NCBI GenBank assembly: GCA_963775425.1
Contig: CAVZJB010000006.1
Location: forward strand, 99,898-163,897
DNA from: an uncultured delta proteobacterium
GTDB taxonomy: Bacteria; Myxococcota; UBA727; VGSZ01
DNA: 64,000 nucleotides
Direction: 5' to 3'
The position numbers and the translations under genes are program-made. Position 1 is the first letter of the stretch. Each line of letters starts with the position of its first letter. Of the stretch, positions 3,827 through 13,109 are shown one piece after another. The notes under the pieces were generated by a model that worked only from the letters and a program-made list of their open reading frames with translations, had not been told where the DNA came from and did not search any database.

Positions 3827-4948
3827 TCAGGCGAGGGCGGACAGCGAGTTGAAAAAGCCCATGCGCTTGGCGACCTGCGCGCCGGGGTTGCCGGGGACTT
3901 CGTAGTTGCGCACGAGGGCGTCCACCATCTGCTGCGGGCTCGAGTTGCCGAGCAGCGCGTTCTTGGTCTTGGAGAAGCGCGGGTTGTGGGTGATCTCCCA
4001 GACGGCGGCCTTGGTCTGCTCGGCCACCGTCATGTCCTTCGGCTCCTTGCCGAACTCCTTCTTGATGGCGGCGGCGCGCCCCGGATCCCACTGCACAATC
4101 CCCTGGGACATGTGGCGCACGTCCCAATGATTGTCGTTGGGCTTCGACAGCGACTCACCGGTCATGTTCGCGACGAGCGCGCGCGCCGCGGTCGGGCTCA
4201 GCGGGGGCACGCCGTGCGCCGGGTCGCCCTGGAGCGCGGCCTGGTAGGCCTCCTTCTGGTTCGCCGAGAGGCTGCCGCTCGGGATGCCGACGGCGTCCTC
4301 GACCCCCTGGCGCATGCGCGTGAGCATGCCGGGCTGCTGCGGCCCGGGCGCTTCACGCCGCGAGACCGACGACAGGCCGCCGGCGCCGGCAGCGCTGCCG
4401 CCGCTCGTGCCTCCGGCGTTGCCGACGCTGCCCGTCGACGACGCGGTGCGGTTGTTGTTCTGGTTCTGCGCCGCCTGGACGAGCGCGAGCAGCGTCTCCA
4501 GGTCGAGGTGCCCCGTGGGGTTGATGCCCGCGGCCTCCTGGAGCTTCTTGATGGCGTCCATCGTCTTCGGGTCTTCGAGGGTGTCGCCGGTCTCGAGCCC
4601 GAGCTTCCTGAGGTCTCCGATGGCGTCGACGTTCTGGAGCGCCTGCGAGAGCTTGCCGAGGTCGAGCGGGGTGTTCGGGTCGAGCCCGAGCGCCTGCTTG
4701 AGCGACTGCAGCCCCTTCATCATCTCCGGATCGGTGGCGCCGAGCGTCAGGCCGAGGTCCTGGACGTTGGCGTTGCCCGCGAGCTTCTGGACGCCGGGGA
4801 GCGCGGGGGCGCCGAGCGTTCGTGCCGTGCCGCCGTGGGTGAAGGTGGCGGCCGCCTGCTGCGCCTTCTTCTGACACAGGAGCGACTCCGGATCGTCCGT
4901 GGCTGCGTTGAGGGCGCCGGGTCGAACGCCGCCAATCTCGAGGGACAT
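3827..4948 (-). CDS. putative muralytic protein: peptidoglycan-binding-like repeats plus a C-terminal phage-tail-lysozyme-like domain; no signal peptide
   Basis: 373 aa. The central repeats resemble PG_binding_1 (AIKKLQEAAGINPTGHLDLETLLAL). The C-terminus (ANMTGESLSKPNDNHWDVRHMSQGIVQWDPGRAAAIKKEFG...VRNYEVPGNPG) resembles the phage tail lysozyme family. The N-terminus has no hydrophobic leader. Confidence 0.7.
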   Translation of the reverse strand: MSLEIGGVRPGALNAATDDPESLLCQKKAQQAAATFTHGGTARTLGAPALPGVQKLAGNANVQDLGLTLGATDPEMMKGLQSLKQALGLDPNTPLDLGKLSQALQNVDAIGDLRKLGLETGDTLEDPKTMDAIKKLQEAAGINPTGHLDLETLLALVQAAQNQNNNRTASSTGSVGNAGGTSGGSAAGAGGLSSVSRREAPGPQQPGMLTRMRQGVEDAVGIPSGSLSANQKEAYQAALQGDPAHGVPPLSPTAARALVANMTGESLSKPNDNHWDVRHMSQGIVQWDPGRAAAIKKEFGKEPKDMTVAEQTKAAVWEITHNPRFSKTKNALLGNSSPQQMVDALVRNYEVPGNPGAQVAKRMGFFNSLSALA

Positions 4949-5035: not shown

Positions 5036-5845
5036 TCAGCGCTTCTTTTTGACGGGGGGCTTGGCGGCCGGCTTCTTCGCGGACTTGGGCGCCGGCTTGC
5101 CCGAGGGCTTCTTGGCGGCCGGCGCCTTCTTGGCCGGGGCAGCCGCGGCCTTCTTGGGCGCCGCCTTGGGGGCGGCCTTGGCCGGCGCGGCCTTCGCGGG
5201 CTTGACCGGCATGGCCGAGCGCGGGGCGGCCGGGGCGGGCCGCGTGGCCTGGCGCGGGGGGTTGGCGGGCTGCGCGCGGGCGCGTTCGGCGGCGGCGGCG
5301 GCCTCGCGGGCCTTCTGGGCGTCCGCCTCGTTCTTGGGGATGGGCTTGGCGGTGCGCCGCTCCTTGATGGTCTGTGGGGCCACCGGCGGCCACGGCGACC
5401 GGGACTTCTTTTCGTCCTTGTCGTTGCGCCACAGGACGCAGGTGATGGTCCCCTGCATGACGCTGTCGTGGTTCTGGTTCTCGGCCCAGACGTCGACGTC
5501 GACGCGGGCCTCGCCGTTGCTCTCGTAGCGCTCGGCGACCATCCCCGTCATGCGCAGGATGTCGCCCGGCCACACGAGCTTCCGGAAGCGCCCGGACACG
5601 CTCAGGATGCGGCCGTTCTCGAGCCACTTGCCGACGGCCTCGGTGGCGAAGGACAGCGCGATGGCGCCGTGGGCGAAGACGCCGCCGTAGCCCGCGCCCT
5701 TGGCGAAGTCGTCGTCGAGGTGCAGCGGGCTCCAGTCCTGCGACGCCCCGGCGAACTTGGCGATCTGCACGCGCGTGACAGCCGGCTTCGACACCGGCGT
5801 CACTTGCTCGCCCTTTTCAATCGAATCCCAATACAGCTTGGGCAT
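5036..5845 (-). CDS. MaoC-type (R)-specific hydratase/dehydratase with a C-terminal Lys/Ala/Pro-rich basic tail
   Basis: It starts at ATG 5845 (MPKLYWD), which overlaps the upstream stop by 1 nt (TGATG). It carries the hydratase-2 motif SQDWSPLHLDDDFA. The last ~100 aa are KPAKAAPAKAAPKAAPKKAAAAPAKKAPAAKKPSGKPAPKSAKKPAAKPPVKKKR. Confidence 0.8.
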   Translation of the reverse strand: MPKLYWDSIEKGEQVTPVSKPAVTRVQIAKFAGASQDWSPLHLDDDFAKGAGYGGVFAHGAIALSFATEAVGKWLENGRILSVSGRFRKLVWPGDILRMTGMVAERYESNGEARVDVDVWAENQNHDSVMQGTITCVLWRNDKDEKKSRSPWPPVAPQTIKERRTAKPIPKNEADAQKAREAAAAAERARAQPANPPRQATRPAPAAPRSAMPVKPAKAAPAKAAPKAAPKKAAAAPAKKAPAAKKPSGKPAPKSAKKPAAKPPVKKKR

Positions 5846-6294
5846 CAGCGCCTCGGCAGCCCGCCGCGGACAACGAGAGTGCGCTGGGCCTCGAAGCGGA
5901 CGTCGTCGGCTCGCTTGCCGGTGCCCACGACGTCGATCACGACGAACCCCATGGGGTTCCCGCTGGCCTGCTGCTCGTACACGTCCCGCAGCGTTGTGGT
6001 GATTGTGAGCTCGTCGCCGACGCACACCGGCGCGAACATGCTGACGTATTCCTGCGCGTGAAGCACCTGCTTGGGTTTCAGCTCGAGCAGGTCGATGACG
6101 TGCTGGAAGTCGCCGAGGGTGGCGGCGGCGGCGTGCGGGAGCATGAGCCCGGAGAGGCCGGCGGAATGCGCCACCTTCTCGTCCACGGACATCGGGTCGG
6201 TGACCTCGAGCGCATCCACGAAGCGCTGCACGAGCCCTCGCTCGACCACGATTGTCTTTTGGACCTTTTCGCCAAGATGGGCTTTATGCTTCAT
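5845..6294 (-). CDS. MaoC_N-like hotdog-fold subunit, probable partner of the downstream dehydratase
   Basis: 149 aa (MKHKAHLGEKVQKTIVVERGLVQRF...GDELTITTTLRDVYEQQASGNPMGFVVIDV). It is translationally coupled to the next gene, an arrangement like HadA/HadB-type heterodimers. Confidence 0.75.
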   Translation of the reverse strand: MKHKAHLGEKVQKTIVVERGLVQRFVDALEVTDPMSVDEKVAHSAGLSGLMLPHAAAATLGDFQHVIDLLELKPKQVLHAQEYVSMFAPVCVGDELTITTTLRDVYEQQASGNPMGFVVIDVVGTGKRADDVRFEAQRTLVVRGGLPRR

Positions 6295-6322
6295 CTTTTC
6301 AAGGACCTACGCGACAACGCAA

Positions 6323-6338
6323 AGCGTCAAAAGTGCCT
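6323..6338 (-). promoter_or_regulatory. weak sigma54-like -24/-12 element upstream of the MaoC pair
   Basis: The minus strand reads AGGCACTTTTGACGCT, which has GG-N10-GC spacing. It lies in the only AT-rich spacer of the window, about 30 nt upstream of ATG 6294. The -12 is ACGC rather than TTGC. Confidence 0.2.
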
Positions 6339-6385
6339 GTTCCAGCCTCTAACGTGCATCAGACCTGAGCGAAAAGCAAGAAAGA

Positions 6386-7447
6386 TCAATGTTCTTTTGA
6401 GCGGCGGTTCAACAGGAACTTCACCGGGTCTTCGCGCAAGCCCTTCAAAACGGCGTGGAGGTCCGACGCCGCCTCTTCGTCCCAGAAGAGCTTGCCGGCG
6501 CCGCCGCGCTTGTCCTCGACGGCGCCGAGCAGCCTGTCGGCGCGCTTCATCACAGCGTCGAGGGAGCGCATGGCCTGCGTGACGTTCGCGAGGAGCTGCG
6601 CCTGCTTGTGCGGGTCGGCGAGCGCGGGCTGCTTGTCGAGCAGGTCGAGCGCCTTGTCGACGCGGGCGATGGCGTCCTTGCCCTCGGCGAGGAGCGCGGG
6701 CACCTGATCGGATTCGAGCTTCGCGGTGGCGTCGAGGACGCCGGGCAATCGATCGAACGTCCCGCGCAGCGCGCGCCCGTCGCCGACCCCGACGGCCGCG
6801 CCGTGGACCAGCGCGCGCAGGTCGTCGGTGAAGGCGCGCAGGTCGTCGCCGCCCGGGACGTCGTCGTGCGCGAGCAGCGAATCGAGGCGCCGCATCAACG
6901 CCGACAGCGAGCGCATGAGCTCGATCGCCTCCTGCGATTTGGGCAGGAGCTCTTCGAATTTGCCGAGCAGTCCCGAGGCTCGGGACAGCAGCAAATCCGG
7001 TCGATCCTGGGAAATCCCATCGATGCGGGCGCCGTCCGCGAGGCGCGCGCCGCCGGGGACCGGCTCGAGGTCGAGGTAGTGCTCGCCGAGGACGCCGAGG
7101 GTGGTCACGCGGAAGCGCGCGCGGTCGGTGACGACGGGCATCGCGCGCTCCTCGATGCGCGCACGCACGCGCACCATCTTGTCGGGGCCGGCGGCCCGGT
7201 CCTGACCGGCGAGCAGCACGACGTCCTGGACGGCGCCGACCTCCACGCCCGACAGCCGCACCGACGCGCCCGGCTTGATGGGGCCCGCGAAGGCGAAGTC
7301 GACGTCGATGGTCTCGCCGCGCACGATCTTGAGCGGCCCGGTGACGACGAGGATCGCGACGAGGATCCCCATGGACACCAGGGCGAGGAGCCCCACGCGG
7401 AACGCGCGCGCCCGGTCCGCCGCTCGCGCCGGCCTCGGCTCCGTCAC
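6386..7447 (-). CDS. MlaD/MCE-domain protein with a long helical C-terminal extension
   Basis: The GTG start at 7447 overlaps the ATPase stop (GTGA). It has an N-terminal TM segment (VGLLALVSMGILVAILVV), an MCE core (GETIDVDFAFAGPIKPGASVRLSGVEVGAVQDV), and then about 200 aa of helical heptad-like sequence. Confidence 0.85.
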   Translation of the reverse strand: MTEPRPARAADRARAFRVGLLALVSMGILVAILVVTGPLKIVRGETIDVDFAFAGPIKPGASVRLSGVEVGAVQDVVLLAGQDRAAGPDKMVRVRARIEERAMPVVTDRARFRVTTLGVLGEHYLDLEPVPGGARLADGARIDGISQDRPDLLLSRASGLLGKFEELLPKSQEAIELMRSLSALMRRLDSLLAHDDVPGGDDLRAFTDDLRALVHGAAVGVGDGRALRGTFDRLPGVLDATAKLESDQVPALLAEGKDAIARVDKALDLLDKQPALADPHKQAQLLANVTQAMRSLDAVMKRADRLLGAVEDKRGGAGKLFWDEEAASDLHAVLKGLREDPVKFLLNRRSKEH

Positions 7448-8106
7448 GCGGCCTCCCGGTGGACGCGGCCGCCGTCGACACGCACCACGTCGGGGCGCAG
7501 GCGCAGGAGCGTTCGCGGGCTGTGGGTGATGACGATGAGCGTGGTGCCCGTCAGGGCCGCGAGCGCGTCGTCCACCTGGCGCGCCGCCACGGGATCGAGG
7601 CCCGTGGTGGGCTCGTCGACGACGAGGACGCCGGGCTTCAAGCACAGCGCGCGCGCGAGCGAGACGCGCTTTTGCTGGGCGATCGACAAGGACGCCGGGG
7701 CCGCCCGGCGCACGTCGTCGAGGCCGAGCTCGGAGAGGGCGGCGTCGACGCGGGCCTGCGCTTCGTCGCGGGACACGTCCTGGCGGTCCACGGCGAACGC
7801 GACGTTCTCCTCGACGTCGAGGGTGTCGAGCAGCGCGGGGTCCTGGTGCACGAAGACGAGCGGCGGCGCGGAGACGTGCACGCGGCCCTTCGCGAGCGGC
7901 AAGAGGCCCGCCGCGGCCTTCATGAGCACGCTCTTGCCCGCGCCCGATCGCCCGACGACGGCGTGCACCCGGTCGCGCGCGAACGACAGCGTGACGTCGT
8001 CAATGACCACCCGGCCGCCGAGGGCGACCGTGACGCCTTCGAGCGCGAGCGCCGGTGTGTCGTGGGACGCGGCCTCGCCCGCCGCGGGGACGTCCTCGAC
8101 CGTCAT
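7444..8106 (-). CDS. ABC transporter ATP-binding protein (MlaF-like), degenerate signature motif
   Basis: Walker A is GRSGAGKS, the Q-loop is FVHQD, the signature is LSIAQ (not LSGGQ), Walker B is LVVDEP, and the switch is ITHS. The ATG at 8106 overlaps the upstream stop (ATGA). Confidence 0.9.
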   Translation of the reverse strand: MTVEDVPAAGEAASHDTPALALEGVTVALGGRVVIDDVTLSFARDRVHAVVGRSGAGKSVLMKAAAGLLPLAKGRVHVSAPPLVFVHQDPALLDTLDVEENVAFAVDRQDVSRDEAQARVDAALSELGLDDVRRAAPASLSIAQQKRVSLARALCLKPGVLVVDEPTTGLDPVAARQVDDALAALTGTTLIVITHSPRTLLRLRPDVVRVDGGRVHREAA

Positions 8107-8852
8107 ACGGCGCTCCTGCCGACGAACCACGCGACGTCGAACAACACGCTGGCGATGAGGCACGCGACGACGCCGCCGACGACGGCGTTGGTGGCGGCGC
8201 GGCCGACGGCTTCGGCGCCGCCGCGCGCGCGCAGCGCCGTGCGCACGGCCATCACGAACACGAGCGCGCCGTTGACGGCGCACTTGGCGACGAGGAGGCC
8301 GAGGCCCGCGAGCGTGACGGCCTCCGGGTGAAAGAACGTGAACGGGTTCACGCCGCTTCGGCCCCACAGGGTGATCACGCCGGCGATCTCCCAGGAGACG
8401 AAGCCGAGGAGCCCGAGGCCGACGGCGCCGGCGACGAGGGCGGCGCCCATGGGGGCGAGCACGCTGCGCGCGGGGTCGAGCCCGAACAGCGAGAGCGCGT
8501 CGAGCGTGTCCTCGGACTGCAGCGTGGCCACCTCCGCGGCGAAGCCGGCGCCGACGCGCTGCGCGAGGGTGAGCGCGACGATGAGCGGGCCGAACTCCTC
8601 GACGCCCAGCACGATGTACTCGGGCCCGATGAAGCTCTGGTCGCCGAGCAGCCGCATGGCCTGCCGCGCGGCTTGATCGCCGAGCGCGACGCCGACGGCC
8701 GCGACGGTGACGGTGACGAGCAGGAGCGACCCGGGCAGCACCTCGTCGAGCCGGCGGAGCAGCGCGCGGCCGTCGAGGCGCCAGGGCGTGAGCGCGAACG
8801 TGAGCGCGCGCGTCGTCGACGCCAGCGCGAGCTGCGGCGCGGCGGCGGTCAT
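8103..8852 (-). CDS. MlaE/YrbE-like ABC permease 2
   Basis: 249 aa and polytopic (…EEFGPLIVALTLAQRVGAGFAAEVATLQSEDTLDALSLFGLDP…). This matches the MlaE conserved core. It has an ATGA overlap with the upstream gene. Confidence 0.85.
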   Translation of the reverse strand: MTAAAPQLALASTTRALTFALTPWRLDGRALLRRLDEVLPGSLLLVTVTVAAVGVALGDQAARQAMRLLGDQSFIGPEYIVLGVEEFGPLIVALTLAQRVGAGFAAEVATLQSEDTLDALSLFGLDPARSVLAPMGAALVAGAVGLGLLGFVSWEIAGVITLWGRSGVNPFTFFHPEAVTLAGLGLLVAKCAVNGALVFVMAVRTALRARGGAEAVGRAATNAVVGGVVACLIASVLFDVAWFVGRSAV

Positions 8853-9688
8853 GACGCGCCTCCGACGAGGGACAGCGCCGCGTTGAGGACCATGACGCCA
8901 CACAGGGAGAGCACGCTGCCCGCGTAGACGGCGCGGCCGATGGCGCCGGCGGAGCAATCGGCGCTCCTCTCGACCGAGACGCCCGCGTGGCACGACGACA
9001 GCCCGACGACGGCGCCGAAGAGCGTCATGCGCACGAGGCCGTTGGCGAGGGACGCGGGCTCGAGGTACTCGACGAACGACCACCAGCTCGTGGCGATGGA
9101 TTGGCCGCCGACGAGGTCGGCGACGACGAAGCCGACGGCGAGCACGACGCTGCACGAGGGCACGTACAAGAGCGCGGACGCGGCGACGGTGGCGACCACG
9201 CGCGGCGCGATGAGCACGCGCTCGGGGTCGAGGCCGAGGGCGCGCACGGCGTCGAGGCGCTCGCGGGCGGCCATCATGGCGACCTCGGCCGTGTTGCGGG
9301 CGCCGGTGCGCGCGGCGAGCCCGACGCCGAGGAGGAGCGGGCCGACGTCGCGGTACGACGACAGCGCGGCCGCCCAACCAAAGACCTCGCCGGCGGCGTA
9401 CCGCTTGATGTAGCCGAGGCCCTGCATGGCGACGATGCCGCCGACGGCGGTACAGGCGACGAGCATGAGGGGCAGCGCGTCCCTGAGCAGGCGATCGAGC
9501 TGGCGCAGCGTCTCGCGCCCGTCGACCTTGAGGCGCACCATGCCGTCGACGGTCTGCGCCGCGCGCACGAGGATCGCGCCGAGCTCCTCGATGACGAACA
9601 TCACGCGGAACCCGAGCGCCGTGATCAGCGGCGCGCCCAGCGCCAGGGGCAGCGCGGCCGTCGTCGGAGGGTGCGCACGCCTGATCAC
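8849..9688 (-). CDS. MlaE/YrbE-like ABC permease 1
   Basis: 279 aa (…YRDVGPLLLGVGLAARTGARNTAEVAMMAARERLDAVRALGLDPERVLIAPRV…). The GTG start at 9688 is uncertain. Confidence 0.85.
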   Translation of the reverse strand: MIRRAHPPTTAALPLALGAPLITALGFRVMFVIEELGAILVRAAQTVDGMVRLKVDGRETLRQLDRLLRDALPLMLVACTAVGGIVAMQGLGYIKRYAAGEVFGWAAALSSYRDVGPLLLGVGLAARTGARNTAEVAMMAARERLDAVRALGLDPERVLIAPRVVATVAASALLYVPSCSVVLAVGFVVADLVGGQSIATSWWSFVEYLEPASLANGLVRMTLFGAVVGLSSCHAGVSVERSADCSAGAIGRAVYAGSVLSLCGVMVLNAALSLVGGAS

Positions 9689-9722
9689 GCCGCCCTCCGC
9701 CGTCCGGGGGACACCGGTGCCG

Positions 9723-10421
9723 TCACGGGGAGGCCTCGACGGGGGCGAACGCGGCGGTGCGCGCGTCGGCGGCGAGCGCCGCGGGCGTGCCGAGGAAGAC
9801 CGGCTTTCCCTCCTCGAGGACGAGGGCCTGCGCGCAGCGCGGGAGCACGACGTCGACGTCCTGGGTGGCGATGACGACGCAGCGCTCGCGCTCGCCTTCG
9901 AGGAGGAGCGCGAGCACCTCGGCGGCGGTGTCGGGGTCGAGGCCGGCGGTGGGGTCGTCCGCGAGGAGCAACGCGGGGGCGACCGCGAGCGCGCGCGCGA
10001 TGCCGACGCGCTTCTTCATGCCGCCGGAGAGCTGCCGCGGCAGCTTGTCGGCGTCGGTGCCGAGGCCGACGCGCGCGAGCGCCTCGCGCGCGGCCTCCCG
10101 CTCGGCGACGACGGCGACGTTGCCCAGGGCGGTCTTCGCGTCGTCGAGCGCGTCGCGCTGAAAGACCATCGCCACGCGCCCCGCCGGCGTCGCGAGCGCG
10201 CCCTCGCTCCCGCACAGCCCGGCGAGCGCCGCGAGCAGCAACGACTTGCCGGCGCCCGGCCCGCCGAGGACCGCGAGCGGCGCCCCCGGCTGCACCGTGA
10301 ACGACAGCGGCCCGAGCGCGAGCCCGCCGCGCCCGCGGGCCGACAGCCCGTCGACGACGAGCCGCGCTCCCGCGTCGGCTGCCGCGGTCCCGCGCGCGCC
10401 GTCGTCTGCCTCGCCGGTCAT
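9723..10421 (-). CDS. ABC transporter ATP-binding protein (MlaF-like), degenerate catalytic residues
   Basis: Walker A is GGPGAGKS, the signature is LSGGM, Walker B is LLLADDP (Asp where the catalytic Glu is expected), and IATQD stands where the switch His is expected. The ATG at 10421 overlaps the UbiB stop (ATGA). Confidence 0.85.
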   Translation of the reverse strand: MTGEADDGARGTAAADAGARLVVDGLSARGRGGLALGPLSFTVQPGAPLAVLGGPGAGKSLLLAALAGLCGSEGALATPAGRVAMVFQRDALDDAKTALGNVAVVAEREAAREALARVGLGTDADKLPRQLSGGMKKRVGIARALAVAPALLLADDPTAGLDPDTAAEVLALLLEGERERCVVIATQDVDVVLPRCAQALVLEEGKPVFLGTPAALAADARTAAFAPVEASP

Positions 10422-12199
10422 TGGCCCTCACCGCCGGCGTCGTAGGGCGGGGGCTTGCCCCCCGCGTCGGGCTGGACCAAGCGGCGCCGCCCGCCGGCCG
10501 CGAGGAGGCCCCGCACGGTCAGCTTCGGCAGGCGCCCGCCCGTCAGGTACCAGGCGAAGGCGACGCCGAAGCAGCCGCCGGCGACGACGAAGAGCGCGGC
10601 CGCGATGAGCGGAGCCATCACGAGGGACACGCCGGCGCGGGTGAGGATGTCGAAGCCGCCGAGGATGCAGGCGGCGGCGAGGGCGCCGCCGAAGATGGTC
10701 ATGCCCAGGCCGCGCAGCGCGTTTTGCAACCCGTCGAGGTCGGCGCTCTTGACGACGACCTGCACCTGGCCACGCTCGAGATCCATGAGCGCCTGGCCGA
10801 GCTGCAGCGGCACCTCCTGCACGAGGAGCCCGAGCTGCAGCGCGGTGCGCAGCCCGCCGGCCTTCCACTGCCGCGGGTCCACGCGCTCCATGAGGAGCTC
10901 TTCGGCGCGTCGGGTGAGCACCGGGCCGGGGTCGAAGCCCGGATGCAAGGTGCGCACGATGCCTTCGATGGACACGCTCGCCTTCGACAGGATGGCGAAC
11001 TCGCGGGGCAGGCGGACGCCGAACCTCGTCGACAGCTCGACGAGGTCGGAGAAGACGCCGGCGGTGCTCACCTCGGACACCGTGAGCCCGAGGTAGCGAT
11101 CGAGCAGCCGCGCCACCTGCGTGCGCAGGTGTGCGATCTCGATGCGCTTGTCGCTCTCGCCGATGCGCACGATCAGGCGGGCGAGGGTGTCGGCGTCGCG
11201 CAGCGACAGCGCGAGGAGCACGAGGAGCAGGCGGTCCTGCGTCTCCCGCGACACGCGTCCGACGAGGCCGAAGTCGATGAAGGCGATCTTGCCGTCGTCG
11301 GTGACGAGGAGGTTCCCGGGGTGGGGATCGCCGTGGAACATGCCGTCGATGAACACGTGCTCGAAGGCCACCTCGACGAGGCGCTCGATGATCGTCTCGG
11401 CCTCGGGGGTGCCCTTCAGCTCCGTGATGCGCCGGCCGTGGATGCGCTCCATCACGAGCACCGTCGCCGACGACAGCTCCGGATACGGCCGCGGCACGTG
11501 GACCCCGGTGCGCGTCGCGTTGGCGGTGGCGAACGCGCGCAGGTTCCTCAGCTCGGACGTGAAGTCGAGCTCCACGCGCAGCGCCTCCTGGAACTCGCGC
11601 ACGAAGTCGGCGGTGTGGTACCGGTGCGCCTCTTCGACGACGCGCTCGAGCAACTGTGCGAGCACCACGAGCATCTCGGCGTCGCGCTTGACCTGCTCCT
11701 GGATGCCCGGCCGTTGCACCTTGATGACGATGTCGTCGCCGGAGGGGAGCTTGGCGGCGTGCACCTGCGCCATCGACGCCGACGCCAGCGCGGTCTCGTC
11801 GACGGACGCGAACACCTCGTGCATGGGCCGGCCGAGCGCGCGCTCGACCTGCGCCCGCACGTCGGCGAAGGGAAAGGGCGGCACCTGATCCTGCAGGCGC
11901 GACAAGGCGGTGATGAAGTCGGCGGGGAGGAGGTCGCCGCGCGTGGACAGGATCTGCCCGAGCTTCACGAACGTGGGCCCGAGGTCCTCGAGCATGGTGG
12001 CGAAGCGCTCCGCCGCCGGCCGCTGGTCGACGCCGCGGCCCGTGTCCCGCACGAAGCGGCGCACGAGCGGGATGGTGCGCATGGACGGCGCAAAGCCGTG
12101 CCGCGCCATCACCGCCGCGATCTCGCGGAGCCGCCCGAGCCGCGACGTCGCATGCTCGAGCGCGCGCTCCTGTGCCTCCGGCCGGGGGTCCGCCGCCAT
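10418..12199 (-). CDS. ubiB: UbiB/ABC1 (AarF/ADCK) atypical kinase family protein with C-terminal TM segments
   Basis: 593 aa. ABC1-family features are present (FVKLGQILSTRGDLLP, ASASMAQVHAAKL, HGDPHPGNLLV, IDFG). The C-terminus is hydrophobic. Confidence 0.9.
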   Translation of the reverse strand: MAADPRPEAQERALEHATSRLGRLREIAAVMARHGFAPSMRTIPLVRRFVRDTGRGVDQRPAAERFATMLEDLGPTFVKLGQILSTRGDLLPADFITALSRLQDQVPPFPFADVRAQVERALGRPMHEVFASVDETALASASMAQVHAAKLPSGDDIVIKVQRPGIQEQVKRDAEMLVVLAQLLERVVEEAHRYHTADFVREFQEALRVELDFTSELRNLRAFATANATRTGVHVPRPYPELSSATVLVMERIHGRRITELKGTPEAETIIERLVEVAFEHVFIDGMFHGDPHPGNLLVTDDGKIAFIDFGLVGRVSRETQDRLLLVLLALSLRDADTLARLIVRIGESDKRIEIAHLRTQVARLLDRYLGLTVSEVSTAGVFSDLVELSTRFGVRLPREFAILSKASVSIEGIVRTLHPGFDPGPVLTRRAEELLMERVDPRQWKAGGLRTALQLGLLVQEVPLQLGQALMDLERGQVQVVVKSADLDGLQNALRGLGMTIFGGALAAACILGGFDILTRAGVSLVMAPLIAAALFVVAGGCFGVAFAWYLTGGRLPKLTVRGLLAAGGRRRLVQPDAGGKPPPYDAGGEGQ

Positions 12200-12255
12200 G
12201 AGCCCGCACGATCGCAGCCCCCATCATCGCAAGCCAGAAAACGGCGCGAGGGCAC

Positions 12256-12407
12256 GGCGGAGCTGCCGCCGAAGCCGGCGCGCGGGCCCGAGCTGGCAAC
12301 GCCGTCGAGCCAAAAAAAGCGCGGCGGAGCTGCCGCCGAAGCCGGCGCGCACGTGAGCTCACGTTGGCGAGCCCGGGGAGCGCGCCGGCTTCGAAGGCAG
12401 CTCCGCC
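12256..12407. repeat. intergenic structured repeat: three copies of a 28-nt unit (two direct, one inverted) around a 14-bp perfect palindrome
   Basis: GGCGGAGCTGCCGCCGAAGCCGGCGCGC occurs at 12256-12283 and 12323-12350. Its reverse complement, with 2 mismatches, is at 12380-12407. ACGTGAGCTCACGT lies at 12351-12364 between the inverted copies. An A7 run sits at 12312-12318. Confidence 0.85.
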
Positions 12408-12476
12408 GCTCCGGGCGCCCGGAGGGCGCGGCTGTTCGCGAGCGTGAGCGAGCAAAAACCGCTACGATCCTCGCGC

Positions 12477-13109
12477 ATGAGCGGGCGCACCTACATCGCC
12501 ATCGCGGGGAACATCGGCGCCGGCAAGTCCACGCTCGTCGAGTTCCTCTGCCGCACCTACGGCGTTCCGCCGTTCTTCGAGCCCAACGAGGACAACCCCT
12601 ACCTCGCCGACTTCTACGAGGACATGAAGGGGTGGGCGTTCCACTCGCAGGTCTTCTTCCTCACGCACAAGTTCCGCATCCACCAGGAGCTCGACAAGAC
12701 GCCGGGCATCGTGGTGCAGGACCGGACGATCTACGAGGACGCCGAGGTCTTCGCGCACGCGCTGCACAGGAGCGGCAAGCTCACCGAGCGCGACTGGAAG
12801 ACGTACTGCGAGCTGTACGAGACCATCTGCAACGCCATCCAGCCGCCGGACCTGATGGTGTATTTGAAGTGCTCGCTCAAGACCACCAAGCAGCGCATCA
12901 AGCTGCGCGGGCGCGACATGGAGCAGAGCATCCCCACGTCGTACTTGAAGCTCCTTCAGGAGAGCTACGACGCGTGGTTCGCGCGCTGGAAGAAGAGCGA
13001 GGTCCTCGAGATCGACACCGACAAGCTCGACTACGTGAGCGACCTCGTCGATCGCCTCGACGTCCTCGCGCGCCTCGAGCGCTACCTGCCCCGCACCCGC
13101 GCGGCCTGA
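12477..13109 (+). CDS. deoxynucleoside kinase
   Basis: It has the P-loop GNIGAGKST and dNK-family blocks (FFEPNEDNPYLADFY, FHSQVFFL, DRTIYED). The start is ATG 12477; an alternative GTG is at 12444. Confidence 0.85.
   Translation: MSGRTYIAIAGNIGAGKSTLVEFLCRTYGVPPFFEPNEDNPYLADFYEDMKGWAFHSQVFFLTHKFRIHQELDKTPGIVVQDRTIYEDAEVFAHALHRSGKLTERDWKTYCELYETICNAIQPPDLMVYLKCSLKTTKQRIKLRGRDMEQSIPTSYLKLLQESYDAWFARWKKSEVLEIDTDKLDYVSDLVDRLDVLARLERYLPRTRAA

Follow-up and report, generated by a model that had tools for sequence, protein, structure and literature searches.

The six-gene locus at positions 6386-12199 of the analysed window, a stretch of 64,000 nucleotides, is from its sequence best read as an Mla/MCE-type envelope lipid transporter with a pair of distinct ATPases and a pair of distinct membrane subunits. 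We propose that it encodes an MCE transporter with heterodimeric NBDs and heterodimeric TMDs, in which one ATP site would be catalytic and the other degenerate, and in which a UbiB protein is a likely co-expressed accessory. We put the probability of this reading at roughly 0.7. Its firmest part is the NBD heterodimer, which the motif comparisons make highly probable, while a functional coupling of UbiB to the transporter has about even odds.

All six genes lie on the minus strand, and the open reading frames and Pfam domains confirm the order given by an earlier sequence-only reading: UbiB/ABC1, ATPase-1 (A1), permease MlaE-1 (E1), permease MlaE-2 (E2), ATPase-2 (A2) and a long MCE protein (Table 1). 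That reading had the genes chained by start/stop overlaps. Four junctions do show 4-nt overlaps (ATGA at 10418-10421, 8849-8852 and 8103-8106, and GTGA at 7444-7447), but ATPase-1 and MlaE-1 are separated by a 34-nt spacer containing GGAGGG, the ATPase-1 TGA being at 9723-9725 and the first possible MlaE-1 start a GTG at 9688. In homologous loci, unlike the window, this junction is also overlapping. The Pfam domains reveal no MlaB/STAS gene in the operon, and it contains no MlaC or MlaA gene either. When relatives were checked, the A1-E1-E2-A2-MCE order and its overlapping stops and starts were found to be kept at 40-77% identity, also at loci with different flanks and thus in different genomic contexts.

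Table 1. Genes and ATP-site motifs of the locus (positions in the window).
Feature	Position	Strand	Remarks
Long MlaD/MCE protein, 353 aa	6386..7447	-	PF02470, E = 5.1e-13
ATPase-2, 220 aa	7444..8106	-	PF00005; NBD with consensus catalytic residues and degenerate signature
ATPase-2 Walker B LVVD164-E165 (7612-7626) and switch His ITH195S (7519-7530)	7519..7626	-	both intact
ATPase-2 signature LSIAQ, residues 140-144	7675..7689	-	at LSGGQ position; aligned to LSGGE/LSGGQ
MlaE-2, MlaE-family permease 2, 249 aa	8103..8852	-	PF02405, E = 3.1e-30
MlaE-1, MlaE-family permease 1, 279 aa	8849..9688	-	PF02405, E = 3.9e-40
ATPase-1, 232 aa	9723..10421	-	PF00005; NBD with putative degenerate catalytic half-site
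ATPase-1 H-loop IATQ187D	9858..9872	-	Gln instead of switch His, by alignments
ATPase-1 Walker B LLLAD155-D156	9954..9971	-	D156 at catalytic-Glu position; aligned to DEP of solved NBDs and MlaF
ATPase-1 ABC signature LSGGM, residues 131-135	10017..10031	-	intact
UbiB/ABC1-family atypical kinase-like protein, 593 aa	10418..12199	-	PF03109, E = 1.6e-68

The motif positions were obtained from HMMER alignments to solved NBDs and from hmmalign comparisons with E. coli MlaF, LptB and 20 single-copy MlaF sequences. The Walker A motifs are located at G53-S60 in ATPase-1 (GGPGAGKS) and at residues 52-59 in ATPase-2 (GRSGAGKS). The motif assignments made earlier by eye hold for both proteins: next to an intact signature, ATPase-1 has D156 and Q187 in place of the catalytic Glu and the switch His, and in ATPase-2, where Walker A, LVVDEP and ITHS are intact, LSIAQ replaces LSGGQ. 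The substituted positions are thus indeed the catalytic Glu, the switch His and the signature Gly-Gly.

The hmmalign comparison included 12 loci with two ATPases, and in every one of them the catalytic substitutions are found in ATPase-1 and the degenerate signature in ATPase-2. All motifs are consensus in the 21 single-copy MlaF controls, and not one of the 21 Mla loci with a single ATPase shows the complementary pattern, which is therefore far beyond chance. This supports, as far as sequences can tell, the prediction of one consensus and one degenerate ATP site, and also the view that selection maintains complementarity throughout the family and that it is no quirk of one sequence. Among 56 ATPase-1 relatives, the catalytic-Glu position is occupied by D (38), E (13) or A (5) and the switch-His position by Q (20), H (20), T (6), A (4), S (4) or N (2), and at least one of the two is substituted in 55. 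Glu and His are both kept in a single relative, P0044; its probable partner at the same locus is P0195, with the signature LGDGP, a pairing drawn only from their matching 19,700-bp longest contigs. The signature residues S132, G133 and G134 are invariant in all 56. In the ATPase-2 family, the Walker-B DE and the switch His are present in each of the 119 sequences scored, and the first signature Gly in 0 of 117 (P 82, V 17, I 7, L 6, others); the more than 50 signature variants among these 117 members are a sign of relaxed constraint. Two related 2+2 Mla loci from other lineages show complementary defects of the same kind. At the Kofleriaceae locus (L056) the switch His is replaced by Ser, which is kept in 119 and exchanged for Tyr in one of the 120 closest homologues, and the partner signature is LSDGM, while the Bdellovibrionaceae locus (L012) combines a Walker B DD and a switch Asn with the partner signature ISYGM.

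The substitutions in ATPase-1 could also be taken to mean that it is a pseudo-ATPase without nucleotide binding, an MlaB-like structural or regulatory scaffold that leaves all energy coupling to ATPase-2. Such a role would fit with the variable middle of its Walker A (GGPGAGKS, GGPRAGKT, GSASSGKS and others among the relatives) and with an operon that has no MlaB/STAS gene to stabilise the NBDs. We consider it improbable, since the residues that bind Mg-ATP are kept (Walker A Gly and Lys and Walker B Asp in 56/56 relatives, Q-loop Gln in 52/56, D-loop GLD invariant), the invariant signature is what would be expected if ATPase-1 completes the active site of ATPase-2, and ATPase-2 alone could not form a composite ATP site. 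Nor does ATPase-1 appear to be in decay, because its AlphaFold2 model is a confident canonical NBD fold (pLDDT 93.2); this fold matches generic NBDs, MlaF being eighth in rank. An Asp at the catalytic-Glu position can allow residual activity, and in 14 of the 56 relatives Asp occurs together with an unchanged switch His, so that hydrolysis at the degenerate site may be slow and not lost.

Another option considered was that of two homodimeric half-systems, (ATPase-1)2(MlaE-1)2 and (ATPase-2)2(MlaE-2)2, which would either share one MCE hexamer or compete for it. Each ATPase gene does lie beside one permease gene (A1-E1 and E2-A2), and homodimers make up the canonical MlaFE complex (PMC13492129). 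However, an ATPase-1 homodimer would have both sites without catalytic base or His, and an ATPase-2 homodimer both sites without functional signature. The strict complementarity, with SGG invariant only in A1 and Glu/His only in A2, would be left unexplained, while the heterodimer predicts it, and the A1, E1, E2 and A2 genes occur together in every locus examined. These points make the half-systems very improbable.

The two ATPases are 36% identical, and neither is specifically nearest MlaF or MceG in the sequence and fold comparisons. In a crude NJ tree, A1 and A2 fall into separate orthologous clades, as do E1 and E2, with the E1 orthologues in one clade, so that the ATPase and permease duplications look old. 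MlaE-1 matches solved MlaE and YrbE1A/B structures; as it matches YrbE1A and YrbE1B about equally and MlaE better, the permease duplication looks independent of Mce. MlaE-2 is the more divergent paralogue, 36% identical to MlaE-1 over 119 aa, with only 6 clusters (50% identity) at E <= 1e-30 among 1.84 billion representatives.

The description of the last gene as a single MCE-domain protein with a helical tail of ~200 aa was also correct. An N-terminal membrane helix is followed by one MCE domain (PF02470, residues 44-129) and by the tail, which ends in a conserved GxxGKLFxDE...DLKAVLKxLRxxP motif. The family profile matches MlaD and also Mce1B (8fed_B), the latter over profile positions 10-292 including the helical needle. 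A single-sequence AF2 model of low confidence (pLDDT 46.5) has a TM helix, beta strands and then helices over residues 150-352.

It is instructive to compare the locus with known systems. MlaFEDB of E. coli, A. baumannii and P. aeruginosa (PDB: 6xbd, 7cge, 6z5u, 7ch8) also consists of an MlaE-family permease, a hexamer-forming MCE/MlaD protein and an ABC ATPase, with their genes lying together; the LSGGM signature is common to MlaF and ATPase-1, and most single-copy MlaF proteins share the TxGLDP D-loop region with both window ATPases. In MlaFEDB, on the other hand, a single ATPase and a single permease each form a homodimer and both ATP sites are consensus, whereas the window has two of each and, as predicted, one degenerate site, is without MlaB/STAS, MlaC and MlaA, and has UbiB linked. 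In addition, MlaF (269 aa) has a C-terminal extension that the window ATPases (220-232 aa) do not have, and MlaD has 183 aa, compared to 353 aa for the long-type window protein. Actinobacterial Mce1/Mce4 (YrbEA/B, MceG, MceA-F; PDB: 8fed/8fee) also has a heterodimeric MlaE-family permease pair and, like the window, MCE proteins with a long helical needle, but relies on one shared ATPase (the MceG homodimer) and six Mce proteins, as opposed to two ATPases and one MCE gene (PMC13492129). With only one such gene, the window protein presumably forms a homohexamer, and the host is a diderm Myxococcota-like organism. The compositions that the sequence-only reading had quoted for both systems agree with this 2026 review (PMC13492129). 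Veillonella parvula MlaEFD and Brucella abortus Mpc are, like the window, compact operons without MlaC, with an MCE protein ~2x the size of E. coli MlaD whose coiled-coil/helical extension has been proposed to bridge the periplasm (PMC10665443, PMC12436622); as described, they have one MlaE and one MlaF, with no heterodimeric NBDs, degenerate site or UbiB.

The closest parallels for the ATP sites are found among the type IV exporters PatAB, TM287/288, TmrAB and TAP1/2, in which one NBD has a non-consensus Glu and His and its partner a non-consensus signature, like in the window. The degenerate site of PatAB combines the Walker-B Asp and H-loop Gln of PatA, exactly the residues of ATPase-1, with the PatB signature SAGQ, non-consensus as in ATPase-2 (PMC9541285). 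These exporters are fused TMD-NBD half-transporters, whereas the window encodes separate NBD subunits, an MlaE fold and an MCE hexamer, a difference in ABC architecture from which we infer that the asymmetry arose independently. Full-text literature searches turned up no MlaF or MceG described as heterodimeric or degenerate, in line with what the sequence-only reading had supposed, and the one-sided ATP-site asymmetry in Mla/MCE-type transporters thus appears to have no earlier description.

Members of the UbiB/COQ8/Cqd1-Cqd2/ABC1K group have links to the handling of quinones and isoprenoid lipids. The window UbiB has the motifs common to this group, plant ABC1K included, namely KxGQ (79-82), the Ala-rich loop ASASMAQVH (139-147), the catalytic Lys (K160), HxDxHPGN (HGDPHPGN, 289-296) and a DFG-like motif (IDFG, 308-311), none of which varies among 8 operon-linked orthologues and E. 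coli UbiB. Its two predicted C-terminal membrane helices resemble those of E. coli UbiB (29% identity), but its gene is translationally coupled to an MCE transporter and lies outside a ubiE-ubiJ-ubiB operon. The score against the NCBIfam ubiquinone-pathway equivalog TIGR01982 is 374.8 bits, under the 487.55 cutoff.

UbiB adjoins the transporter in 12 of 13 core-family loci, usually with its stop codon overlapping the ATPase-1 start. It could still be a mere neighbour, through co-transcription or inherited gene order, that serves an unrelated process, such as quinone biosynthesis or some general function in the membrane, next to an independent transporter. Complete 2+2 transporters indeed occur without adjacent UbiB in one core-family locus (L092), where an RND pump takes its place, and in a distant clade (L088/L089), and the 2+2 systems L056 and L012 have no UbiB within 10 kb. 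At L084, an opposite-strand MscS-like gene splits ubiB from ATPase-1. Since a much wider block is also conserved, with dNK, pseudouridine synthase and GYF genes upstream and hotdog-fold genes downstream, part of the linkage could reflect shared ancestry. A mere neighbour is nevertheless the less likely reading. The 4-nt overlap with ATPase-1 recurs in the window, L081, L082 and L090 (a single shared base in L086), the adjacency survives an altered downstream context (L091, L086) and is present in 4/4 metagenome contigs that include upstream sequence, and the kinase is neither above the ubiquinone-pathway cutoff nor in any ubiE-ubiJ-ubiB arrangement. The searches of full-text literature gave no report of a UbiB-Mla linkage, so linkage of UbiB to an MCE transporter appears not to have been described earlier; the authors of a study on Cqd1 speculated that it might be accessory to a system for lipid transport, and compared this to Mla (PMC10214851).

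In the mechanism that we propose, the locus would encode a trans-envelope MlaE-fold ABC lipid transporter with a doubly heterodimeric inner-membrane core, ATPase-1:ATPase-2 on MlaE-1:MlaE-2. Six copies of the long MCE protein would cap this core as a homohexamer, and their helical tails would form a periplasmic tube. A head-to-tail NBD dimer would create two composite ATP sites. The consensus site, made up of Walker A, Walker B and H-loop of ATPase-2 and the LSGGM of ATPase-1, would act as the motor, and the degenerate site, made up of Walker A, Walker B and H-loop of ATPase-1 (D156, Q187) and the LSIAQ of ATPase-2, would bind ATP with poor or no hydrolysis. Binding should be possible there because the Walker A Lys, the Walker B Asp and the Q-loop are conserved. 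With one catalytic and one degenerate site, one ATP would be hydrolysed per cycle, and the degenerate site would have the role of a hinge held by nucleotide, or of an allosteric site, like its counterparts in the heterodimeric exporters PatAB and TM287/288. UbiB, membrane-anchored and translationally coupled to ATPase-1, would most likely be an accessory that prepares, extracts or gates hydrophobic cargo. An isoprenoid or quinone class for this cargo is a doubtful guess, while it is plausible from the UbiB linkage that the transporter is dedicated to a particular lipid.

The operon consists of six minus-strand genes (window 6386-12199), for which coordinates and domain assignments are collected in the first table, and the DNA around it has a G+C content of ca 73%. 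The sequence-only reading had all of these genes chained by start/stop overlaps. This is borne out at four of the junctions (ATGA at 10418-10421, 8849-8852 and 8103-8106, and GTGA at 7444-7447), but at the remaining one ATPase-1 and MlaE-1 do not overlap: 34 nt separate them, with a GGAGGG box in this spacer. No further MlaE, MlaD, ABC or UbiB genes were found elsewhere in the 64-kb window, and a Pfam scan of the six proteins of the operon and of six encoded next to it gave neither MlaC nor MlaA. An Rfam scan of window 5800-12700 had no match, and a promoter scan found no sigma-70-like site, as expected at 73% G+C.

Coordinates of the operon genes, the adjoining gene pair and two related systems
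Feature	Location	Strand	Description
UbiB/ABC1	window 10418-12199	-	593 aa; PF03109, E = 1.6e-68
ATPase-1	window 9723-10421	-	232 aa; PF00005
MlaE-1	window 8849-9688	-	279 aa; PF02405, E = 3.9e-40
MlaE-2	window 8103-8852	-	249 aa; PF02405, E = 3.1e-30
ATPase-2	window 7444-8106	-	220 aa; PF00005
MCE protein	window 6386-7447	-	353 aa; PF02470 at residues 44-129, E = 5.1e-13
Hotdog-fold pair	window 5036-6294	-	FAS1_DH_region, then MaoC dehydratase; ~90 nt downstream of the MCE gene
L056 2+2 system	L056:9857-15919		Kofleriaceae MAG JBDTJY010000253.1; A-E-E-A, then two different convergent long MCE genes
L012 2+2 operon	L012:9249-13123		Bdellovibrionaceae MAG JABJQG010000010.1; A-A-E-E-D (ATPase-ATPase-MlaE-MlaE-MlaD)

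The upstream neighbour of the operon is a divergent deoxynucleoside kinase (dNK) gene. Between it and ubiB, in window 12252-12409, lie three copies of a G+C-rich element of 29-32 nt, CGGCGGAGCTGCCGCCGAAGCCGGCGCGC, two of them direct (12252-12283 and 12319-12350) and one inverted (12380-12409). Each copy can fold as a hairpin, with a T-run after one of them on the minus strand. The element, which could be an operator or REP-like, has no further copy elsewhere in the window, where chance alone would give 0, nor was it found in the related loci. On the other side of the operon, the hotdog-fold pair is syntenic in most related loci, and a lipid-related tie to the transporter is possible; the C-terminus of the MaoC protein is a long Lys/Ala/Pro-rich tail that is histone H1-like. 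Unrelated to the transporter, window 3827-4948 (minus strand) encodes a 373-aa secreted-looking protein with PF01471 peptidoglycan-binding and PF18013 phage-tail-lysozyme domains.

The motif positions of the two ATPases were established by HMMER alignments to solved nucleotide-binding domains (NBDs), and by hmmalign together with E. coli MlaF, LptB and 20 single-copy MlaF proteins. Both routes agree with the motifs that had been called by eye, which are given in the second table.

ATP-site motifs of the two window ATPases
Motif	ATPase-1	ATPase-2
Walker A	GGPGAGKS (53-60), intact	GRSGAGKS, intact
Q-loop	Gln	Gln
Signature	LSGGM, intact	LSIAQ (140-144), degenerate
Walker B	D155 + D156 at the catalytic-Glu position	D164 + E165, intact
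H-loop	Q187 at the switch-His position	H195, intact

Degenerate-site ABC proteins are recognised by loss of Glu/His in one NBD and loss of the signature in its partner, and this is what is found here, with D156 and Q187 in ATPase-1 and LSIAQ in ATPase-2. It is established for ABC structures that in a head-to-tail NBD dimer both half-defects fall into one composite ATP site (PMC9541285). The second site, composed of the ATPase-2 Walker motifs and H-loop and the ATPase-1 signature, is predicted from the motifs to be fully consensus. The two ATPases share 36% identity over 179 aa, and MlaE-1 and MlaE-2 36% over 119 aa; both pairs are old paralogues.

The same pattern is seen among the relatives. 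A protein search yielded ca 56 relatives of ATPase-1. Each comes from a metagenome or MAG bearing the label Myxococcota or Deltaproteobacteria, and the nearest is 64% identical. All 56 sequences keep S132, G133 and G134 of the signature region, Gly and Lys in Walker A, Asp in Walker B and the D-loop without change, while the catalytic-Glu position is occupied by Asp in 38, Glu in 13 and Ala in 5, and the switch-His position by Gln and His in 20 each, Thr in 6, Ala and Ser in 4 each, and Asn in 2. Only one relative, P0044, retains Glu and His together. Another protein, P0195, has the signature LGDGP, and since the longest contig of each of these two proteins is 19,700 bp, they probably share one locus.

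The ATPase-2 family shows the complementary behaviour. All but a few members have the GRSGAGKS Walker A and the FVHQDPAL Q-loop, and both the Walker-B DE and the switch His are present in 119/119 sequences scored. The first signature Gly, on the other hand, is absent throughout the 117-member set (Pro in 82, Val in 17, Ile in 7, Leu in 6, others in the rest), and the more than 50 signature variants in this set indicate relaxed constraint. A metagenome-contig search seeded with the ATPase-2 Q-loop segment returned 20 loci, 8 of which are genuine members of the family; the remaining 12, with ABC ATPases that have [FY]VHQDPAL in common but no relationship to the family, were discarded.

A substituted ATPase-1 is paired with a signature-degenerate ATPase-2 in all 12 two-ATPase loci, compared to none of the 21 single-copy MlaF controls, which are consensus at every motif. 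These results, with which both family sets are concordant, confirm the complementary ATP-site defects that had been proposed from the window. We also considered that the substitutions might reflect decay of pseudogenes. This is ruled out because both families retain many invariant residues and because the AlphaFold model of ATPase-1 is a confident, canonical NBD (pLDDT 93.2; among its fold neighbours, which are generic NBDs, MlaF ranks eighth).

Conservation of the gene order, on which the first proposal also depended, holds as well. The five-gene order ATPase-MlaE-MlaE-ATPase-MCE is kept in all encoding contigs examined from relatives (loci L081-L087, L090-L093, L096, L097 and L099-L104), mostly with 4-nt overlaps. 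The MlaE-2 type is rare, with only 6 clusters (50% identity) at E <= 1e-30 among 1.84 billion representatives. UbiB lies directly upstream in 12 of the 13 core-family loci that have upstream sequence (window, L081, L082/83, L084/85, L086/87, L090, L091, L093, L097, L100, L101 and L104). It should be pointed out that this adjacency weighs less because far wider synteny is also conserved; the linkage does persist at L086 and L091, where the downstream context differs.

Some of these loci have additional features. At L092 (1222-5480), an RND efflux pair (membrane-fusion protein and ACR_tran) stands upstream of ATPase-1 and replaces UbiB, while at L084 (8062-8946) an opposite-strand MscS-like channel gene splits ubiB from ATPase-1. 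Directly after the MCE gene of L091 there is a gene of the vitamin K epoxide reductase family (VKOR, 9863-11173), which, at this single locus, is a weak hint of quinone chemistry. A distant clade, L088/L089, with ca 40% identity and another context, has the core of two ATPases and two permeases (2+2) without UbiB. It encodes, beside topoisomerase VI genes, a 169-aa MCE-like protein without the long helical tail (L088:9326-9835, L089:5154-5663), for which there is no Pfam match on record and which scores 54 against the MlaD HMM.

As a control, the best 80 genome matches to the ATPase-1 profile were inspected. The profile here picked generic ABC motifs, so that the set holds mostly canonical Mla or other ABC systems and no core-family member. 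An MlaE gene adjoins ca 59 of these 80 matches, and 57 of the ca 59 Mla loci combine a single MlaE with a single ATPase and, in most cases, one MlaD; the remaining two are 2+2 systems. In the Kofleriaceae system (L056), the first ATPase has Ser in place of the switch His and the second the signature LSDGM. Of the 120 closest homologues of the first (at least 78% identity), 119 likewise have Ser at the switch position and one has Tyr, with intact signature and Glu. No UbiB is present within 10 kb of this system, and its two MCE genes suggest a mixed MCE hexamer. In the Bdellovibrionaceae operon (L012), the first ATPase has a Walker B DD and a switch Asn and the second the signature ISYGM, which looks like an equal complementary asymmetry in another phylum. 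Both systems retain the MlaF-like C-terminal DPxVxQF motif. In a crude neighbour-joining tree without support values, the MlaE-1 orthologues, including those of L056 and L088, are separated from MlaE-2, and ATPase-1 from ATPase-2, suggesting that the duplications are older than these lineages.

Concerning the class of the transporter, both permeases carry PF02405 and match solved MlaE structures, MlaE-1 also YrbE1A/B, which places them in the MlaE-fold class. The two PF00005 ATPases flanking them are, by pairwise score and fold, no nearer to MlaF than to other NBDs. Assignment of the ATPases to MlaF or MceG by similarity was attempted with BLAST, phmmer against the PDB and Foldseek, but all yielded generic NBD neighbours and were not used for membership. 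In the MCE protein, a membrane helix at the N-terminus is followed by a single MCE domain and, as first read, a helical tail of ca 200 aa, with a conserved C-terminal GxxGKLFxDE...DLKAVLKxLRxxP. Its family profile matches MlaD at 2.7e-12 and Mce1B (8fed_B) over positions 10-292, helical needle included. The single-sequence AlphaFold2 model is unreliable (mean pLDDT 46.5), and from it only the secondary-structure order was used, which is the same. The protein is of the long-MlaD type, which in Veillonella and Brucella has been proposed to bridge the periplasm (PMC10665443, PMC12436622).

The system differs from the known ones in several respects. Canonical MlaFEDB has one ATPase and one permease, both as homodimers with two consensus sites, whereas the window has paralogous pairs with complementary defects. 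MlaFEDB also includes the STAS protein MlaB, while none of the six operon proteins has a STAS domain, and MlaF has a C-terminal 'handshake' extension, whereas the window ATPases (232 and 220 aa) stop shortly past the NBD core. Actinobacterial Mce systems have two YrbE permeases, to which the side-by-side MlaE-family paralogues of the window are analogous, although the window duplication is probably independent of YrbEA/B; the Mce systems have, however, six Mce genes (a heterohexamer) and a single shared MceG, compared to one MCE gene and two ATPase genes here. The type IV exporters TM287/288 and PatAB have fused TMD-NBD chains with a 6-helix fold, in contrast to the stand-alone NBDs of 220-232 aa and MlaE-family membrane subunits of the window. 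PatAB has the identical combination of Asp, Gln and degenerate signature (PMC9541285), so that the window system would be a convergent solution on a different ABC fold.

Mla, Pqi, Let, TGD and mycobacterial Mce each have a single ATPase species, as tabulated in a July 2026 review (PMC13492129). In the full-text literature, for which coverage is incomplete, we found no MlaF1/MlaF2-type nomenclature, no heterodimeric or degenerate MlaF/MceG and no UbiB-MCE/Mla linkage, in line with the earlier impression that the asymmetry is undescribed for Mla/Mce systems. The components are familiar, and it is their combination and the predicted asymmetric motor that, on evidence that is computational throughout, appear new.

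By what means UbiB/COQ8/Cqd proteins act on membrane lipids has long been a question. The window UbiB is 29% identical to the E. coli protein and has two C-terminal hydrophobic helices. Its KxGQ motif, Ala-rich loop, catalytic Lys, HxDxHPGN and metal-binding Asp are all invariant in an alignment of eight operon-linked orthologues with E. coli UbiB. It falls below the NCBIfam equivalog cutoffs TIGR01982 and NF003404 (374.8 bits vs 487.55 and 282 bits vs 667, respectively), and the context is not ubiE-ubiJ-ubiB: the gene lies between dNK and the transporter genes.

A mechanism can be proposed in which ATPase-1 and ATPase-2 would sit as a heterodimer on MlaE-1 and MlaE-2 beneath an MCE hexamer. 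ATP would be hydrolyzed at the site formed by the ATPase-2 Walker motifs and the ATPase-1 signature, while the site formed by the ATPase-1 Walker motifs and the ATPase-2 signature would bind ATP with slow or no turnover, leave the NBDs in partial engagement and fix the stroke at one ATP. UbiB, co-translated with ATPase-1 and membrane-anchored, would be an accessory that extracts or licenses a hydrophobic cargo. This last is the weakest step; it accords with current ideas on the UbiB family and with published speculation likening Cqd1 to Mla (PMC10214851). The full reading, that UbiB works as a subunit of the transporter or as its dedicated partner and, driven by ATP, extracts or licenses an inner-membrane lipid of isoprenoid/quinone type for an asymmetric one-stroke Mla-like pump that feeds a helical MCE tube, is tentative, and we give it a probability of roughly 0.3.

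In diderm bacteria, mycobacteria and chloroplasts, MCE/Mla transporters are central to the traffic of envelope lipids, and to our knowledge the ATPase of every described member is a homodimer whose two ATP sites are equivalent. If true, the proposed mechanism would provide the first degenerate-site ABC motor of the MCE class and would, for the first time, tie the UbiB/COQ8/Cqd family directly to the mechanism of a lipid-transport machine; the tight, translationally coupled operon offers a concrete bacterial hypothesis of UbiB lipid action. A conserved lineage in which the NBDs are heterodimeric and one site is degenerate would form a fourth architecture beside Mla, Mce and Pqi/Let. It would also be a natural experiment, in that the one-active-site solution would have arisen independently outside the exporter fold, and the window system lets the ATP consumed per lipid and the role of the second site in an MCE pump be tested. 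Since related 2+2 systems are also present at the Kofleriaceae locus, with its abundant and highly conserved ATPase family, and at the Bdellovibrionaceae locus, the principle may be widespread among these lineages of lipid-rich predators.
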